Assembly: GCA_019058315.1 (NCBI GenBank)
Contig: JAHPZH010000001.1
Location: 64,001 to 128,000, forward strand
Origin: Candidatus Helarchaeota archaeon
GTDB taxonomy: Archaea; Asgardarchaeota; Lokiarchaeia; Helarchaeales; RDOG01
DNA length: 64,000 nt
Direction of reading: 5' to 3'
In this document: one piece after another, positions 48,839-56,939 of the stretch
Numbering within the stretch: position 1 is the stretch's first letter
How the letters are laid out: every line of letters begins with the position of its first letter
Notes under the pieces: model-generated
Told to the model about the DNA's origin: nothing
Database searches by the model: none
Seen by the model: only the letters and a program-made list of their open reading frames with translations
Translations under genes and position numbers: made by a program

Positions 48839-50242
48839 TTGGATTGGAAACCCGAAATAAATGAATTATATGAAAAAGTAACAAGTCAAGTACCAGAAGC
48901 ATTTCGAGATGCTGTAAAACCAATGCTTAGGCAAGCTGCAGAGAAAGCTGCGATACTCCGTAATTCTGCCTATGTAAGCGAAGATGATTTACTGTCATCT
49001 CTATTTGATATTACACCAGAGGCATTTAAACCAACGGTTGTATCAGATTTGGAAAATTTAGGAATTGCTACAGGAAAATATATTGAACTATCAGAGATAA
49101 GAAAAGACTATTCACGCACTTGGGATGAGATTAGTGGAGCATTTCTACCAGGGGTGTATCATTTTACTATGTTTTTAACTGATAGATGTAATCAGAAATG
49201 TATGCATTGTGCTGCTGAAAATCCTATACATCGTCCCGAACTCTCAACTGAACAATGGATTCAAATTATAGAAAATGTTGAACAGACCCTTAGAAAACGT
49301 GGTAGAAGGGGTTGCTATATATGGTTTGGTGGTGATCCAACTTTACGTAAAGATTTGAAAGATCTTATAAAATACTGTGGGGAAAAAGGTTATTACCAAG
49401 CAGTTTCAACTAATGGAATGCTATTTACAGAAGAACTTGCAAAACTTTGTGCAGAAGTTAAAATGTCACATGTTTTTATTAGCTTTGATAGTGTTTATCC
49501 TGAAAGAGCTGCAAAGATAAGAGGAGTTCCAAAAGCTTACGAGGCAGCAGAAAAAGCTATTAAATTAGCACTGAAATATGGCCATTTTGTAATTTGTACA
49601 GCAACAGTACAAAAAACCAATTTTGACGAACTTGATGAAATAAAACAACTCATGGAGAGTTGGGGTGTAATCCCTTATTTCAGAGCCGTTATAAAACAGA
49701 GAAGTGCTGCAGTAAACTGGGATGAGATTGGACTAAGTCATGAGGAATATAAAAAGTTCTATGAATTTAAATATAAACATGTTGTTGAGGCTATTAGAAA
49801 AGGTGAGGGTTCATCTCTCAATAAATTCTATACTTATGATATGGTTCCTTTTATGGAATGTCCAATAAATATAAAAGAACTTACTGCACTTGAATGGGGA
49901 GTTGGTTGTCAAGCATGTCGGTCAGTTTCGGGTATAGATATAAATGGAGATTTTTTTCCATGTGATTATCCTTCAGAATTAACTCTTGGAAACGTATTAA
50001 AACAACCCTTCGATGAAATAATGGAATCTCAGCTTTTTAAGGATATAAGAGATAGAAAAAGAATCGGCAAATGCGCATCATGTCACCATCTCGAATTGTG
50101 TGGAGGAGGTTGTCGAGTACATGCAGAATGTGAGACTGGAGATTTTTTTGAATCATTTCCGTATTGTTGGCATGAAATGGATCATAAACATGAAGAAATT
50201 GCTGAAGTTCCTAAAGAAAAAGAGATACCCGCAAGTAAATAA
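48839..50242 (+). CDS. Radical SAM/SPASM protein with N-terminal PCP_red/DUF2621-like domain
   Basis: CNQKCMHC, FGGDP, SPASM CQAC...PC...GKCASC...CGGGCR...YC; first ~76 aa are the shared helical domain. Confidence 0.9.
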   Translation: MDWKPEINELYEKVTSQVPEAFRDAVKPMLRQAAEKAAILRNSAYVSEDDLLSSLFDITPEAFKPTVVSDLENLGIATGKYIELSEIRKDYSRTWDEISGAFLPGVYHFTMFLTDRCNQKCMHCAAENPIHRPELSTEQWIQIIENVEQTLRKRGRRGCYIWFGGDPTLRKDLKDLIKYCGEKGYYQAVSTNGMLFTEELAKLCAEVKMSHVFISFDSVYPERAAKIRGVPKAYEAAEKAIKLALKYGHFVICTATVQKTNFDELDEIKQLMESWGVIPYFRAVIKQRSAAVNWDEIGLSHEEYKKFYEFKYKHVVEAIRKGEGSSLNKFYTYDMVPFMECPINIKELTALEWGVGCQACRSVSGIDINGDFFPCDYPSELTLGNVLKQPFDEIMESQLFKDIRDRKRIGKCASCHHLELCGGGCRVHAECETGDFFESFPYCWHEMDHKHEEIAEVPKEKEIPASK

Positions 50243-50266
50243 TTTAAATGAATATGGTGTAAATTC

Positions 50267-51679
50267 ATGGAATGGGAAGAAGAAACCAAAGATTTATACA
50301 AAAAAATAACTGAAAATATTCCTGAAGGCTTTCGGAACTCAGTAAAACCCTTAATTTACGAAGCAGCAGAGAAAAGATGCGTAGAACGTAATGGATCCTA
50401 TGTTAACGAAGCAGATTTAATAACTGCAATTTTTGATATAACTCCAGAAGCATTTAAAGCTATGATGACTGATGATCTAAAATCCTTGGGGATTAACGTT
50501 GAAAGATACATTGAACTTAAAGATATTAGAGATCGATATAGACTTTCATGGCAAAAGCTAGAAGATGCTTTTCATCCGGGAAATGTACACTTTGCAATGT
50601 ATATTACAGAAAAGTGTAATCAAAAATGTTTGCATTGTGCCGCAGATGAAAAAGTTGAACGCCCTGAGTTAACAACAGAACAATGGTGTGAAATAATAGA
50701 GAATATTGAGACAGGATTGAGAAAAAATGGTCGACGTGCTTGTTTTATATGGTTTGGAGGAGAGCCCACATTGCGGGAAGACATCCATGATATCATGAAG
50801 TTCTGTGGTGATAAAGGTTACTATCATGCAATAATAACCAATGGTGTGAGGTTTGCAGAAGAATTTGCTAAATCTTGCTCTGATAATGGAATGAGCCACG
50901 TTTTTGTGAGTTTCGACAGTGCAGATCCTATAAAAAACGATAAAATACGCGGAATGCCCGGTGGAAAAACCTTAGAATCGGCAAAGAAAGCAATCGATAA
51001 TTGCTTGAAGTATGGTTTATTCGTTTGCTCATCAATAACCGTAATGAAACATAATATTGATGAACTTGAAGATCTAAAAGCAATATCCGAGAGTTGGGGT
51101 TCACAACCATATTTTAGAGCAGTGGTTAAACAAAATAGAGCTGCTGATTATTGGGATGAAATTGGTTTAAGTCAAGAGGACTATAAAAAATTATATGAAT
51201 TTAAGTATAAACATGCCATAGAAGCTATAAGGGATGGAAAGGCAGGAACTCTACCAGCATACGAAATATATGAAATGACACCCTTTATGGAATGTCCTAA
51301 GGACGACAAGGAAATGACTGGAATTGAGTGGGGTGTTGGATGTCTCGCTTGCAGAACTATGATGGGCATTGGGGTTGATGGAACTATATATCCTTGTGGT
51401 TATCCTACTAAACTGACACTAGGTAATGCATTGAAAGATAAATTTGAAGATGTTCTTAATACACAAATTTATAAAGATATTCGAGATAGGAAGCGCACTG
51501 GTAAATGTGGAGAATGTCACCACCTTAAATATTGCGGTGGAGGATGTAGAGTGCATACAGAATGCGAAACTGGGGACTTCTTCGCTTCTTTCCCTTACTG
51601 CTGGCATGAAATGGATCATGAACATGAAAAACTAGAAGGTTTTGTTAAGGAAAAAGAATTAGAAATTATAAAGAAATAA
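50267..51679 (+). CDS. Radical SAM/SPASM protein with N-terminal PCP_red/DUF2621-like domain (tandem paralog)
   Basis: CNQKCLHC, FGGEP, CLAC...PC...GKCGEC...CGGGCR; collinear with 48839-50242. Confidence 0.9.
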   Translation: MEWEEETKDLYKKITENIPEGFRNSVKPLIYEAAEKRCVERNGSYVNEADLITAIFDITPEAFKAMMTDDLKSLGINVERYIELKDIRDRYRLSWQKLEDAFHPGNVHFAMYITEKCNQKCLHCAADEKVERPELTTEQWCEIIENIETGLRKNGRRACFIWFGGEPTLREDIHDIMKFCGDKGYYHAIITNGVRFAEEFAKSCSDNGMSHVFVSFDSADPIKNDKIRGMPGGKTLESAKKAIDNCLKYGLFVCSSITVMKHNIDELEDLKAISESWGSQPYFRAVVKQNRAADYWDEIGLSQEDYKKLYEFKYKHAIEAIRDGKAGTLPAYEIYEMTPFMECPKDDKEMTGIEWGVGCLACRTMMGIGVDGTIYPCGYPTKLTLGNALKDKFEDVLNTQIYKDIRDRKRTGKCGECHHLKYCGGGCRVHTECETGDFFASFPYCWHEMDHEHEKLEGFVKEKELEIIKK

Positions 51680-51689
51680 AAATCAAAAA

Positions 51690-52103
51690 ATGGAGTTGAT
51701 GAAAATTATAAACACGAAAGAAGAATGGGAATCTTATTTAGATAAATTCATAGAGGGTTATAATATTTTACCTGAGTTACCTGCAATAATTCAATCCATA
51801 GCCCCATTGGTTTTTAATTATGTAATAACTGATCGCCCAGAAATGAGCTATTGGTTTTTAATAGAAAAAGACAAAATAAGTTGGGGATTGGGGCAATATT
51901 CTGGAACTAATCATCCAACTATCATCCATAAGACTGATTTTGAGACCATGAAAAAGGTTAATTCAGGTGAGACTGATCCTATTCAAGCAACAATGTTGGG
52001 GACTTATAATGTCGATGGTGATGTTTCTAAACTCATGGCATGTGCATCCTTACTTCCGCTTGGAGTAAAAGCACATGCTTATGCTCTAGAAAAAATAAAA
52101 TAA
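51690..52103 (+). CDS. SCP2 sterol/lipid-binding domain protein (UbiT/UbiJ-like fold)
   Basis: PTIIHKTDFETMKKVNSGETDPIQATMLGTYNVDGDVSKLM fits the SCP2 C-terminal consensus. Confidence 0.85.
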   Translation: MELMKIINTKEEWESYLDKFIEGYNILPELPAIIQSIAPLVFNYVITDRPEMSYWFLIEKDKISWGLGQYSGTNHPTIIHKTDFETMKKVNSGETDPIQATMLGTYNVDGDVSKLMACASLLPLGVKAHAYALEKIK

Positions 52104-52115
52104 TGGAGTAATAAA

Positions 52116-53324
52116 ATGAATTTTAAATATAATACAGATATAGAAAAGATGCATTATGATATTATAAAGGCTGCTAAACTCGCTGATGCTCCATACAATG
52201 AAGATATAATTCAAAGAATTCTTAAAGCTTATAAGGATTTTTTTAGAGGTTCGGTTGTTACCTTTGTAACTTCAACTAAGCCAAAGAACAAACGCACTCT
52301 GTCAATCCGTTATGTGGAAATAGATGTTAAACATGATCCTTATGAAATTGCGATATCTAATAATCTACTTAAACAAGAAAAACATTTAATCCACCATTTA
52401 TTAACCGAAATTAAAAGTAATTATCCCATTATGGGGTATGGAGTGGATGCTGACGTAAATTATGGTGTAACGAAAATTTGGAGTTTCTTTCAAATTCCAC
52501 AACCCTTAGAAAAAGCATTTAAAACACCTGCAGTTCCTGAAAGTATCCAGAAATTTACAGATTATTTTAAAAAATATGACCTTGATGTTTTTCATCTATT
52601 TGCTTTAGATTTCCGTAATAAAACTGCTAATGTATATTTTATGGTGAAGGATCCAAAAGCAAACCCAGCTGATAAGGTTGCGAACATGATTTCAGACTTA
52701 GGTTTAAAAGTTCCATCACAAGAGATACTTGAACATTGCTCCAAAGCATTAACAATTTATCTTACATTTGCGTGGGAATCCTCCATGGTTGATAGAATAT
52801 GTTTCGGAACTGCCGTTGATGATCCTAGCTTGATCCCAACACATTTAGACCCATTATTAAAAAAGTATTCACAAAATGCACCATTTCAATCAAAAAATCG
52901 CCTATTTATTTACAGTATAACACCATCACGTTCAGGTGACTATATCAAAATCGAAAATGATTATATGGGGGAGATGATTAATTTAATGAAATCTGGAATT
53001 CAAGCTGAAGTTTGGATGGATGACTTAAAAAAACAAAGAGAAAATGTTCAGCCAAAAACTGTTGAACTAAGTGGGGTTAAGTGGGTAGATGGAGTTTCAA
53101 TATTATTTGAAAAAATTACAGATGATATTCCCGAGACGTTCCGTTCATTTGTAAAACCTATGCTGCTTGAAACTGCCGAAAAAAAAAGTCAAATTAGAAA
53201 TGGAAATGGAATTACTGAATCGGATCTTATAACTGCACTATTAGAAATAACACCAGAACCATTCAAACCTGACGCAATTAATAATTTGAAAAAATTAGGA
53301 GTAGATATGCAAAAATATATTTAA
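52116..53324 (+). CDS. ABBA-type aromatic prenyltransferase (NphB/CloQ family) with C-terminal PCP_red/DUF2621-like domain
   Basis: Collinear with NphB motifs: GSVVTF, HDPY, YGVDADVNYGVTKIWSFF, LDFRNKTANVYF, LGLKVP, IYLTFAWESSMVDRICF, DPSLIP, YSQNAPF, DYIKIENDY. Confidence 0.88.
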   Translation: MNFKYNTDIEKMHYDIIKAAKLADAPYNEDIIQRILKAYKDFFRGSVVTFVTSTKPKNKRTLSIRYVEIDVKHDPYEIAISNNLLKQEKHLIHHLLTEIKSNYPIMGYGVDADVNYGVTKIWSFFQIPQPLEKAFKTPAVPESIQKFTDYFKKYDLDVFHLFALDFRNKTANVYFMVKDPKANPADKVANMISDLGLKVPSQEILEHCSKALTIYLTFAWESSMVDRICFGTAVDDPSLIPTHLDPLLKKYSQNAPFQSKNRLFIYSITPSRSGDYIKIENDYMGEMINLMKSGIQAEVWMDDLKKQRENVQPKTVELSGVKWVDGVSILFEKITDDIPETFRSFVKPMLLETAEKKSQIRNGNGITESDLITALLEITPEPFKPDAINNLKKLGVDMQKYI

Positions 53325-53363
53325 TTCTTAATTTTTTGATCACAAAATAAAAATTAAAAGGAA

Positions 53364-54773
53364 GTGATTGCAATTCAATTTACTGTAGCAACAAATTGGG
53401 ATTTTAAACTAATAGATGAATTAGCTAAATACCCTGTGAAAGATATTTATGGAGTTGCAAAATTTTCGATAGTTGGTCATGGTAGACCCTCATTTTTATT
53501 AAATGAAGTTTCAGAAGAAGAAATTGCGGAGTATATTCGAAAAATTCATGAGAAAAAAATGAAATTTTCTTATTTATTAAATGCACCTTGTATGAATAAC
53601 ATGGAATATGATGCTGAATATCATAAAAAGCTGTTAAATTACATTCAATGGATTTGTGATATTGGATCAGATAATGTAATAGTTACAACACCTTTTTTAA
53701 TCAGTCTTATTAAAGAACAATTTCCAAAATTGAAAATTCGGGTTTCAACTATAGCCCACGTTAATAGTGTGAATCGAGCAAAATTCTATGAAGCATTGGG
53801 TGCAGAAGAAATCACTCCTGATGTAATGATTAATCGCGATTTTAAGACTTTGATAAAAATTAAAAAAGCAGTGAAATGTGACATTGTTCTGCTTTTAACT
53901 GATGGTTGTTTATATCAATGTCCCTTTAGATATTATCATTATAATATCCTTGGGCATTCTTCCCAATCTTCCCACATACTTGGAGGTAATTATGTAGATT
54001 TTTGCATATTAAATTGTAGTGCTATTAAATTCTCTAATCCTACCGAAGTAATTAAAGCAAGATGGGTTCGCCCTGAAGATTTATCCCATTATGAAGCTAT
54101 CGGGATTGATAAATTTAAAATTGCTGGACGCCGTATGCCTACTAAATGGATTCTTCGAGCAGTGAAAGCATTTTCTTCTCGAAAATATAATGGGAATCTT
54201 ATAGATATAATCCAAGGTTTTTCTATGTCCGTTGGGGTTGAGAAAGATCCAAATGCTAAATTTATCGACACGATTGATAAAGAGCCTAAAGCAAAACTTA
54301 TAATTGATAATACTAAATTGGATGGTTTTATTGATTTTTTTAAAAAACAAGATTGTATATCAATGTGTGATGACTGCAAATATTGTGAAAATTGGGCAAA
54401 AAAAGCTGTAATTCTTGATAAAGAGCAAGCTCCTAGGTATGTCGAATCATTAGAAGGTTATATTAAAGATATCACTACGAGCCGAGAATTTGGTATTGAA
54501 TCGGTTAAACCAGAAAAGAAGAAGAAAAAAGGCTTAGAATGGAATCCTGAAACTGAAAAAATTTTTGAGGATTTAATTCAACTATCTCCCCAACAATTCC
54601 AATCAATGGCAAAGATGGTTATTTCTTCAATGTCAGAAGAAAATGCAAAAAAAAGAGATTCTAAGGTAGTAGAAAACCAAGATATTGTAAAAGCATTTAT
54701 TGCTGGAACTCCTGAACCTTTTCAAGCAGATATGAGAGAAGGACTTAAAAAATATGGTCTATTAAACGAATGA
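53364..54773 (+). CDS. U32-family Fe-S protein (UbiU/UbiV/RlhA-like) with C-terminal PCP_red/DUF2621-like domain
   Basis: FSYLLNAPC, VSTIAHV, INRDF, GCLYQCPFRYYH...C...C, WVRPEDL, FKIAGR, extra C..CDDCKYC. Confidence 0.88.
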   Translation: MIAIQFTVATNWDFKLIDELAKYPVKDIYGVAKFSIVGHGRPSFLLNEVSEEEIAEYIRKIHEKKMKFSYLLNAPCMNNMEYDAEYHKKLLNYIQWICDIGSDNVIVTTPFLISLIKEQFPKLKIRVSTIAHVNSVNRAKFYEALGAEEITPDVMINRDFKTLIKIKKAVKCDIVLLLTDGCLYQCPFRYYHYNILGHSSQSSHILGGNYVDFCILNCSAIKFSNPTEVIKARWVRPEDLSHYEAIGIDKFKIAGRRMPTKWILRAVKAFSSRKYNGNLIDIIQGFSMSVGVEKDPNAKFIDTIDKEPKAKLIIDNTKLDGFIDFFKKQDCISMCDDCKYCENWAKKAVILDKEQAPRYVESLEGYIKDITTSREFGIESVKPEKKKKKGLEWNPETEKIFEDLIQLSPQQFQSMAKMVISSMSEENAKKRDSKVVENQDIVKAFIAGTPEPFQADMREGLKKYGLLNE

Positions 54774-56189: not shown

Positions 56190-56939
56190 TTAAAGAACCG
56201 CGTTTCCAATTAAGTTTCCAATCTCAAAATTTTTCTGAATTTCATGTCCAATCTTTTTATACTTTTCTATTTTCGATTCTGGAACTTTTAAAATTCGTAA
56301 AAATGGCTCAATTTCATTTATTTTTGCGAAATATATTAAATCATTATTTTCTCTTACTTCCTTTATTAAATCTATTTCCTGTAGATTAAAAAGAAAATCT
56401 TGGACTATTTGAGATTTTAATTTAGACTTTTTTGCTAATATGTTCAAATTGATACCAGGCTCTAATAAAATATATTCCAAAATCCTAAAAATCTTGTCAT
56501 CTCTAAGTAAAAGAATATTATTATCTAATTCTGAATTTATTTTGAAATCAAAATAAGTTATTTTATTTTTAAATCTCCTACTTCTTATATATTCAAATTT
56601 CTCAAGCATCCTTAAGTGCCAAGCTGTCTGATGAGGCGATAACTCTAGATTTCTTTGAATATCTCTTAAATGAGCGCCTGGGCTGTTGAAAACGTATTCA
56701 TAAATTTTGTTCCTTGTATTGTTATTTAAGACGGAATCTTTTGTTATTTTAGAATCTTCAAATAAAACTTTTTTTGAAAATAATCCGTAAATCGCTTGAT
56801 TAATTTCAACATTCGAATATTTTAAGTTTAAAACGGAAATAGTGTATAATTTTTCAACATTTAAAGGACTTACTTTAACCATTTTTTTTGCTAATTCTAA
56901 TATTGACCTCTCAATGGGTAAGAGATTTAATGTTTTAAT
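56190..56939 (-). CDS. Winged-helix transcriptional regulator (tandem ArsR/MarR-like wHTH, COG3398-like)
   Basis: NTRNKIYEYVFNSPGAHLRDIQRNLELS...WHLRMLEKFEYI, second wHTH ILLEPGINLNILAK; start extended to ATT 56939 by homology with 60768-61526. Confidence 0.85.
   Translation of the reverse strand: MKTLNLLPIERSILELAKKMVKVSPLNVEKLYTISVLNLKYSNVEINQAIYGLFSKKVLFEDSKITKDSVLNNNTRNKIYEYVFNSPGAHLRDIQRNLELSPHQTAWHLRMLEKFEYIRSRRFKNKITYFDFKINSELDNNILLLRDDKIFRILEYILLEPGINLNILAKKSKLKSQIVQDFLFNLQEIDLIKEVRENNDLIYFAKINEIEPFLRILKVPESKIEKYKKIGHEIQKNFEIGNLIGNAVL

Follow-up and report, generated by a model that had tools for sequence, protein, structure and literature searches.

What is made by an archaeal operon that sets a soluble prenyltransferase beside two radical S-adenosylmethionine (SAM) enzymes, an SCP2-like lipid-binding protein and a protein of the U32 family is the question raised by positions 48839-54773 of the DNA considered here, a 64,000-nucleotide stretch (hereafter the window) of contig JAHPZH010000001.1 from a Candidatus Helarchaeota archaeon (assembly GCA_019058315.1, positions 64,001 to 128,000 of the forward strand). 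The window is AT-rich, with a G+C content of about 24-37% per 2-kb interval, and its source genome amounts to 5.79 Mb in 12 contigs and is 94% complete. An earlier reading of the sequence, referred to below as the original prediction, saw in these genes a UbiTUV-like module producing a lipophilic redox carrier or lipid, in a combination of genes that it did not recognise as described; indeed, a literature search found no published description of the cluster, subscription journals lying outside its coverage. The answer put forward here, with somewhat more confidence than doubt, is that the operon encodes a soluble, oxygen-independent route to a prenylated, hydroxylated aromatic lipid, and that this product is more likely to be a specialised or accessory lipid than a respiratory quinone.

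The operon and its shared adaptor domain

Coordinates and Pfam matches confirm the five-gene operon noted in the sequence: five plus-strand genes are packed together with successive spacers of 24, 10, 12 and 39 bp, preceded by a B12 radical SAM gene and followed by a gene for a PIG-L deacetylase (Table 1). The hidden Markov model (HMM) searches recommended with the original prediction were likewise positive, with PTase_Orf2, Peptidase_U32, SCP2 and SPASM all matching operon proteins.

The protein encoded from position 52116 is a PT-barrel (ABBA) prenyltransferase by family and fold, as had been proposed. Specifically, it matches PF11468 (PTase_Orf2) at E 1.8e-63 (215.1 bits against a cut-off of 22) across profile positions 2-284 of 287, and a structural model of high predicted confidence (pLDDT, the predicted local distance difference test, of 90.9) retrieves AmbP3 and FamD1 in Foldseek at a template modelling (TM) score of 0.94 (root-mean-square deviation of 1.8 for AmbP3; 32% identity), followed by AmbP1, EpzP, NphB and CloQ, with 41 PT-barrel chains at E < 1e-19. 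Sequence comparison finds the same relatives (FamD1, 5.5e-50; EpzP, 1.3e-39; NphB, 5.6e-32; CloQ, 1e-18). Five residues, K120, N172, Y174, R227 and K278, show no variation among 23 homologues and correspond in the alignment to K119, N173, Y175, R228 and K284 of NphB, which we take to be the diphosphate-binding positions of that enzyme. Asp62 of NphB, presumably a Mg ligand, is aligned with Ser63, and Arg60 and Arg65 nearby are invariant; this replacement suggests a Mg-independent mode of binding like that of CloQ, which we take to work without Mg. The prenyl donor and aromatic acceptor assigned to the enzyme here are putative.

A feature absent from the original prediction is a segment of about 85 amino acids (aa) that occurs in four of the five operon proteins, at the N-termini of both radical SAM enzymes and at the C-termini of the prenyltransferase and the U32 protein. 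The four copies of this segment, hereafter the adaptor, are 25-49% identical, with 13 invariant positions and no conserved cysteine or histidine, and are modelled as four helices with a minimal two-strand bridge. The whole 5.79-Mb genome contains four copies, all within the operon. Among 1.84 billion representative proteins, 277 matches were found, many of them free-standing proteins of 80-100 aa, and in the 48 longer matches scanned with Pfam the fusion partners are U32 (11), PTase_Orf2 (9), radical SAM/SPASM (6) and SCP2 (5), and more rarely 2Fe-2S ferredoxin (3), LuxC, HpaB_C and a methyltransferase (1 each). The adaptor is thus a domain in its own right and one restricted to the pathway of this cluster, where it would bring the enzymes either to the same carrier or substrate or to each other. 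Its placement varies (loci from other genomes and contigs are cited here by L-numbers): on the prenyltransferase it is N-terminal in mainstream Asgard clusters and C-terminal in the window, in a Bacillota locus (L030) it is a separate gene, and in a metagenome-assembled genome (MAG) of Promethearchaeota a paralogue of the window's U32 protein carries two tandem copies (L025:5104-6798). Giant tetratricopeptide repeat proteins that matched the adaptor profile were set aside as probably spurious helical-repeat matches.

Comparison of the adaptor with known domains leads to the C-terminal 80 positions of DUF2621 (PF11084), matched at E 1.6e-6 to 4e-3; yet when scanned alone the four copies score 17.5, 23.7, 25.1 and 28.6 bits, so that only one of them reaches the gathering cut-off of 27.7. 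One copy matches PCP_red, the C-terminal domain of protochlorophyllide reductase subunit B, weakly (E 0.025), while the adaptor profile found nothing significant among solved structures, BchB included (best E 0.08), and no usable match was obtained in the ESM Atlas. Free-standing copies of the adaptor lie on short contigs. A Logan contig (L035:816-3078) carries a free-standing 94-aa copy directly upstream of DUF362 and DUF6599 genes, a context in which the adaptor may serve other pathways also.

The SCP2 gene product scores 22.3 bits against a Pfam SCP2 cut-off of 21.3, and a profile of nine SCP2 homologues matches three solved SCP2 proteins at E 0.001-0.003 over nearly their full length, namely 4uei (E 0.0011), 3cnu and 3bn8. 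SCP2 genes of other clusters, or the SCP2 tails found there, share 58-72% identity with it. The original prediction had tied SCP2 functionally to U32, and this link is strengthened by related clusters in which U32, adaptor and SCP2 form one polypeptide (L011, L012, L016 and L026), the SCP2 part being 65% identical to that of the window. In addition, radical SAM/SPASM-SCP2 fusions occur in L001 and L012, and an SCP2-prenyltransferase fusion in protein P0019. Because SCP2 is thus fused somewhere to each enzyme class, the fusions point to a hydrophobic small molecule, and not RNA or a peptide, as the substrate, and the SCP2 protein is likely to be the carrier of a hydrophobic intermediate.

The U32 protein, here called U32-A, matches Pfam Peptidase_U32 over residues 88-150 only (48.5 bits against a cut-off of 22.4). 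The best structural match of its model (pLDDT 86.8) is the U32 protein Mk0906 (5d88; E 6.7e-11, TM 0.72), and the remaining matches are generic TIM barrels. The closest of its 721 homologues are labelled Promethearchaeota, Lokiarchaeota, Thorarchaeota and similar, and among the 120 matches listed identity is 65-96%. Eight cysteines, spaced as C76; C182-x3-C186-x31-C218; C331-x3-C335-x2-C338-x2-C341, are invariant in 26 sequences, including those of the paralogue U32-B. The cysteine motif reported for the U32 family, which binds a [4Fe-4S] cluster, is CX6CX15-16CX3/4 or X38C, with CXnCX12CX3C in UbiV (PMC6747719). Scored against curated models, U32-A reaches 33.5 bits for TrhP (cut-off 534) and 15.1 bits for UbiU (cut-off 440), with no match to UbiV; in profile comparisons with hhalign it aligns with TrhP at E 1.3e-7 (probability 94%) over 137 N-terminal columns only, with UbiU at E 0.0022 (probability 13%) and with RlhA at E 0.0042, UbiV again giving no match. 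On these comparisons U32-A is classed with no characterised U32 group and forms a separate, very divergent subfamily; by analogy, it is the likely O2-independent hydroxylase of the operon.

Given that TrhP is the best profile match among the E. coli U32 proteins, it might be supposed that U32-A hydroxylates RNA, in the manner of TrhP or RlhA, and lies by chance beside an unrelated prenyltransferase operon. Very little credence can be given to this idea. The firm grouping with RNA hydroxylases against which the original prediction had set itself was not found, as the TrhP score relative to its cut-off makes plain, and U32-A carries the pathway adaptor, has SCP2-fused paralogues and co-occurs with the prenyltransferase genome by genome. 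Moreover, the genome holds elsewhere a second, canonical U32 protein of 443 aa (274 bits to Pfam U32, 207 bits to TrhP), which, being TrhP-like, is the likelier RNA hydroxylase of the two; a genome-wide search found no U32 protein beyond this pair.

The two remaining enzymes, A and B, match Pfam Radical_SAM (76 and 81 bits, respectively) and SPASM (40 and 39.5 bits), and a CX3CX2C motif and a Cys-rich SPASM tail can be read in the translations of both. Their best curated matches in NCBIfam are AhbD, AhbC and NirJ, with scores of 108-145 bits where the cut-offs stand at 500-650 (enzyme A, 124-135 bits for the three models; enzyme B, 145 bits against 500 for AhbD), and identity with any of these was rejected since the scores fall far under the equivalog cut-offs. 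Phylogenetically, enzyme A falls in orthologue group A (100/99 support) and enzyme B in a separate orthologue group B with Asgard copies and that of L002.

Recurrence of the cluster and the explanations it favours

Cluster contexts drawn from homologue neighbourhoods and a map made with custom HMMs over 25 loci agree in placing the same gene families together in more than 15 other loci, so that the possibility raised with the original prediction, that these genes never co-occur elsewhere, does not hold; together with their genome-by-genome co-occurrence, this recurrence indicates that the operon arrangement is not a matter of chance. The synteny survey suggested at that time now extends the gene set to other Asgard archaea, a Thermoplasmata genome and several anaerobic bacterial phyla. 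Most mapped loci combine the prenyltransferase with one to three adaptor-bearing radical SAM/SPASM genes. Prenyltransferase records come from Asgard archaea, Thermoplasmata, an uncultured archaeon, Deferrimicrobium, Aminicenantes, Pseudobacteroides, other Clostridia and Bacillota, Thermoanaerobaculia and Anaerolineae; the prenyltransferase and adaptor-bearing radical SAM/SPASM enzymes occur together in Thermoplasmata, Deferrimicrobium, Aminicenantes, Pseudobacteroides, Clostridia and Thermoanaerobaculia; and a U32 gene lies beside the prenyltransferase in the Asgard loci, in the uncultured archaeon (L016), in a Deferrimicrobium contig (L021) and in Pseudobacteroides (L022).

Co-occurrence was followed within 201 Asgard genomes, comprising the source genome, 40 genomes of the carrier family and 160 of other families. 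PF11468 was found in 12 and the cluster U32 in 13, all 12 lying within those 13 (the additional genome being G144). Besides the source genome, the carriers belong to one family (11-12 of its 40 genomes), and neither marker was found in the 160 sampled genomes of other families. The cluster is therefore strictly co-inherited but patchy.

The trees add a further element. The window's U32 falls in the U32-A group, beside a Promethearchaeota sequence (84% identity), while its prenyltransferase lies outside the mainstream Asgard clade (100/100 support) and groups with that of an uncultured archaeon, near Thermoplasmata and Deferrimicrobium sequences. By its own search the subfamily of the window's prenyltransferase comprises 30 proteins; the mainstream Asgard enzyme, which is 40% identical to it and bears the adaptor at the opposite end, surfaced via U32 gene contexts, and in the search of genome contigs for the prenyltransferase an alignment query gave loci where a single-sequence query matched nothing. 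Fuller Asgard clusters add second and third U32 paralogues, an in-cluster B12 radical SAM enzyme and more SCP2 genes, and some of them a third radical SAM/SPASM enzyme with an FAD_binding_4 and CCG pair. The source genome contains no in-cluster-type B12 enzyme, U32-B, U32-C or third radical SAM type, and its prenyltransferase stands off the mainstream clade; the window therefore carries a cut-down version of five genes, the prenyltransferase of which comes from a different lineage.

Several individual loci show variations of their own. In L012 (11254-13817), a GlcD-like FAD_binding_4 protein and a TfrB/GlcF-like CCG/Fe-S protein are encoded beside a third radical SAM/SPASM type that has its own SCP2. 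L002 (2898-5249) holds a version of the cluster with a thiolase/DUF35 pair and a PlsC-type acyltransferase, and L026 has two more B12 radical SAM genes downstream.

Of greater consequence for the chemistry are genes that accompany the bacterial clusters. A type-1 isopentenyl diphosphate (IPP) isomerase is present above cut-off (157-169 bits against 127) in three Bacillota/Clostridia clusters: in L029 and L030 it immediately follows the prenyltransferase, and in L022 (Pseudobacteroides) it lies three genes downstream of that gene. The L022 cluster also encodes a HemN-like radical SAM protein and, at 429 bits against 279, a bifunctional 3-deoxy-D-arabino-heptulosonate 7-phosphate (DAHP) synthase/chorismate mutase. 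One Clostridia cluster has a UbiE-like methyltransferase. In a Thermoanaerobaculia MAG (L024:3265-6530), two cytochrome P450 genes follow the prenyltransferase and an adaptor-bearing radical SAM/SPASM gene, and no U32 was found in this 12-kb locus, which may represent an oxygen-dependent counterpart of the pathway. Together, a supply of isoprenoid donor, a supply of shikimate or prephenate and the presence of P450s in the place of U32 fit the prenylation and hydroxylation of an aromatic ring.

The same loci bear on a quite different interpretation, in which the adaptor recognises a leader peptide, the radical SAM/SPASM enzymes cross-link the peptide and the ABBA enzyme prenylates it, as in the maturation of ribosomally synthesised and post-translationally modified peptides. 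Many radical SAM/SPASM peptide maturases possess an N-terminal recognition domain of similar size, one type of which can sit on several enzymes of a cluster, and the adaptor resembles these domains in size and in its fusion to multiple enzymes; many peptide maturases also appear among the weaker NCBIfam matches, and bacterial locus L004 has small open reading frames (ORFs) and a trypsin-like protease downstream. Nevertheless, a peptide system is quite improbable: spacers of 10-39 bp leave no space in the operon for a precursor gene, no conserved small ORF was seen across the mapped loci, the adaptor is modelled as four helices with little strand structure, SCP2 lipid-binding domains are fused to U32, radical SAM and prenyltransferase proteins alike, and IPP isomerase and DAHP synthase are supply genes for small molecules.

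An isoprenoid membrane lipid offers a nearer comparison. Here the task of the radical SAM enzymes would be to cross-link, cyclise or methylate isoprenoid chains, as do Tes, Gms and Grs, and the PT-barrel enzyme would prenylate a lipid head or core. Gms, the glycerol monoalkyl glycerol tetraether (GMGT) synthase, is described as combining radical SAM and SPASM domains with a helical domain at its N-terminus, and as needing separation from AhbC and AhbD (PMC11186832); compared by that description, its layout is the same as that of the cluster's radical SAM enzymes. The best curated match of the in-cluster B12 enzyme is TIGR04072, 'lipid biosynthesis B12/radical SAM' (276 bits against 360), SCP2 proteins are present, and genes for a cytidine diphosphate (CDP)-alcohol phosphatidyltransferase (CDP-OH_P_transf) and a GT2 glycosyltransferase flank the cluster in L011, L013 and L026, where they may form a link to the synthesis of polar-lipid head groups. 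On the other hand, the Tes model reaches 62 bits only, on the radical SAM core alone, and the bacterial clusters contain, besides the core, DAHP synthase/chorismate mutase, P450s and a UbiE-like methyltransferase. The same core is found in Clostridia, Aminicenantes and other bacteria, which are not known to make archaeal ether lipids, while the solved PT-barrel relatives AmbP1/AmbP3, EpzP, NphB and CloQ all act, as far as we know, on aromatic acceptors. Modification of membrane lipids is accordingly regarded as unlikely to be the role of the cluster.

A similar degree of doubt attaches to the suggestion that the product is a membrane redox carrier, a new quinone- or phenazine-like electron shuttle that serves anaerobic respiration and arises by a UbiTUV-like route. 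Such a carrier would be built by the enzyme logic preferred here, in that prenylation, U32-dependent hydroxylation and an SCP2 carrier are common to both, and the fuller clusters hold B12 or class-C radical SAM candidates for a methylase; the high conservation of U32-A among the 120 homologues listed would also suit it. Contrary to this suggestion, NrfD and the NarI/HdrE-type family PF02665 occur in 0 of the 40 genomes of the carrier family and are not in the source genome, and NuoH (PF00146), present in 150 of the 160 genomes of other families, occurs in 2 of the 40, both without the cluster, and not in the source genome. Related genomes are not independent and some are incomplete, so that these counts are to be read for their direction, which is clear. 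Going by NuoH, the window's lineage seems to be without complex-I/Mbh-like modules altogether. In addition, bacterial clusters carry IPP isomerase and not a long-chain prenyl diphosphate synthase, and the patchy distribution with signs of cross-domain transfer is typical of accessory metabolism. The absence of quinone modules in carriers and the patchy spread across domains together favour a specialised lipid over a respiratory quinone. Of the two parts of the original claim, then, a lipid-type substrate gains support from the SCP2 fusions, whereas a redox role is disfavoured.

The proposed pathway and the genes around it

If the operon does encode a route to a prenylated, hydroxylated aromatic lipid, its steps may be envisaged as follows. 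Firstly, the PT-barrel enzyme would move a prenyl group from a prenyl diphosphate onto an aromatic acceptor of the shikimate or aromatic amino-acid pool, and the greasy intermediate would be held by the SCP2 protein, as its fusions to every enzyme class suggest. Secondly, the divergent U32 protein, as a putative Fe-S enzyme, would introduce a hydroxyl group into the ring without O2, the oxygen probably coming from prephenate, by analogy with UbiU and UbiV. In the UbiU/V pathway the oxygen atom is supplied by prephenate, a chemistry proposed to hold for U32 proteins in general (PMC10990095). The source genome has chorismate synthase and chorismate mutase and can thus make prephenate. Lastly, and least certainly, the two radical SAM/SPASM paralogues may carry out further radical modification of a side chain or of the prenyl chain, for which the formation of C-C bonds and an oxidative decarboxylation like that of AhbD are candidate reactions. 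The product might serve as an antioxidant, a signal, an antibiotic or a membrane additive.

Several considerations weigh against this proposal. The product, the substrate and the activity of the cluster's members are all predicted from sequence. The SCP2 assignment rests on borderline scores; U32-A resembles known U32 proteins in its N-terminal half only, and its cysteine spacing departs from the published family motif; the radical SAM/SPASM enzymes lie under every curated cut-off, which leaves their chemistry unfixed; and the CDP-alcohol phosphatidyltransferase and GT2 genes adjoining three of the clusters fit a membrane-lipid pathway too. UbiU and UbiV act as a heterodimer, and the window's cluster has a single U32. 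Known PT-barrel enzymes, furthermore, mostly take short donors, so that it is less evident why an SCP2 carrier should be required.

Tentatively, and with doubt outweighing conviction, the proposal can be carried one step further. The operon might constitute a soluble, O2-independent metabolon assembled by tag, in which the adaptor ties the PT-barrel enzyme, the new U32 subfamily and the radical SAM/SPASM enzymes to an SCP2 carrier for the synthesis of a novel class of hydroxylated prenyl-aromatic lipids in Asgard archaea and anaerobic bacteria. Were the pathway to operate as outlined, O2-free hydroxylation of a lipid by a U32 protein would have a second, independent instance, beyond the Proteobacteria and unconnected with ubiquinone. 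The Asgard archaea, about whose lipids and cofactors very little is known, would gain a new natural product or cofactor, and the adaptor would exemplify a new kind of portable domain that labels every enzyme of a single pathway, a help to genome mining and perhaps to the engineering of pathways. Since the carriers do without the usual quinone-using complexes, the role of the product becomes a testable question.

The genes that surround the operon (Table 1) are less closely bound to it. The PIG-L gene, which the original prediction had recorded behind the operon, encodes a BshB1-like protein (69 bits against a cut-off of 182, NCBIfam) and is separated from the U32 gene by a T-rich spacer of 41 bp containing a T5 run and a T9 run. 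No PIG-L gene was seen adjoining the cluster in L010-L013 or L026, and membership was rejected because the neighbourhood of the cluster elsewhere lacks it; the gene probably adjoins the conserved cluster from outside. Upstream, the B12 radical SAM protein is TIGR04190-like (249 bits against 500). It was rejected as an orthologue of the in-cluster B12 enzyme, being 23% identical to the L011 copy; its own orthologues precede the cluster in L013 (1075 bits) and L026 (769 bits), and are found close to a pair of U32 genes in L015. The gene is probably associated with the cluster, though its membership is uncertain. Equally uncertain is the membership of the 191-aa membrane-like ORF, another feature absent from the original prediction: it has no Pfam or NCBIfam match, ORFs of 200-238 aa without family match occupy the same position in L013 and L026, and an HMM of the 200-aa L013 product did not match it at E<=1e-10.

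Table 1. Coordinates of the operon genes and their immediate neighbours in the window.
Feature	Position	Strand	Domain or match
B12-binding radical SAM protein, 500 aa	46498..48000	+	Pfam B12-binding and Radical_SAM
ORF with hydrophobic, membrane-like segments, 191 aa	48140..48715	+	3 or 4 hydrophobic windows
Radical SAM/SPASM enzyme A, 467 aa	48839..50242	+	Adaptor domain, residues 1-88 (nt 48839-49102)
Radical SAM/SPASM enzyme B, 470 aa	50267..51679	+	Adaptor domain, residues 1-88 (nt 50267-50530)
SCP2-like lipid-binding protein, 137 aa	51690..52103	+	Pfam SCP2, borderline
ABBA/PT-barrel prenyltransferase, 402 aa	52116..53324	+	PF11468; C-terminal adaptor, residues 318-402 (nt 53067-53321)
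Divergent U32-family TIM-barrel protein U32-A, 469 aa	53364..54773	+	Adaptor, residues 388-469 (nt 54525-54770)
PIG-L/LmbE-family deacetylase, 207 aa	54815..55438	+	Pfam PIG-L, E 4.7e-26

Two further observations concern regulation and gene content. An HVO_0163-type winged-helix regulator (PF24266) is encoded on the minus strand at 56190-56882 of the window, just downstream of the cluster, and the same N-terminal helix-turn-helix domain occurs in a protein encoded a few genes upstream of the Thermoplasmata cluster (L001:4725-6069), which may be coincidence. Elsewhere in the source genome (G000:C5:606928-616219), four B12-binding radical SAM paralogues stand nearly in a row, in a position unrelated to the cluster.

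Comparison with known systems

The individual enzymes each have recognisable relatives. With the Orf2/NphB-CloQ-EpzP-AmbP family (PF11468) the 52116 protein shares the PT-barrel fold and the positions that we take to bind diphosphate; it differs in carrying the extra adaptor domain of about 85 aa and in that enzymes of its type are found in archaea and strict anaerobes, within a cluster of radical SAM, U32 and SCP2 genes. The radical SAM/SPASM enzymes have the radical SAM core and full SPASM domain in common with AhbD, AhbC, NirJ and Gms, and with Gms a helical N-terminal domain as well (again by published description), but their N-terminal domain is pathway-specific and DUF2621-like.

At the level of the whole pathway, the closest parallel is the UbiT/UbiU/UbiV system of the Proteobacteria (PMC6747719; PMC10990095), in which, as appears to be the case here, U32-family Fe-S-type proteins and an SCP2 protein act on a prenylated aromatic lipid without O2. 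The UbiTUV-like module of the original prediction stands in so far as U32 is found together with SCP2 and a prenyltransferase, and fails in that the U32 is neither UbiU nor UbiV and the SCP2 shows no specific sequence similarity to UbiT (hhalign E 0.14 for the SCP2 profile against E. coli UbiT). The differences are several. The cluster's U32 represents a divergent subfamily, the cysteines of which are differently arranged and include an additional CX3CX2CX2C motif; the window has a single U32, whereas fuller versions of the cluster hold two or three paralogues against the UbiU and UbiV pair; prenylation is assigned to a soluble PT-barrel enzyme and not to membrane UbiA; and the cluster possesses, beyond the UbiTUV parts, radical SAM/SPASM enzymes and a shared adaptor domain. 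Taken together, these comparisons indicate that the cluster probably works like an anaerobic aromatic-lipid pathway of the UbiTUV type but is not a member of the UbiTUV system.

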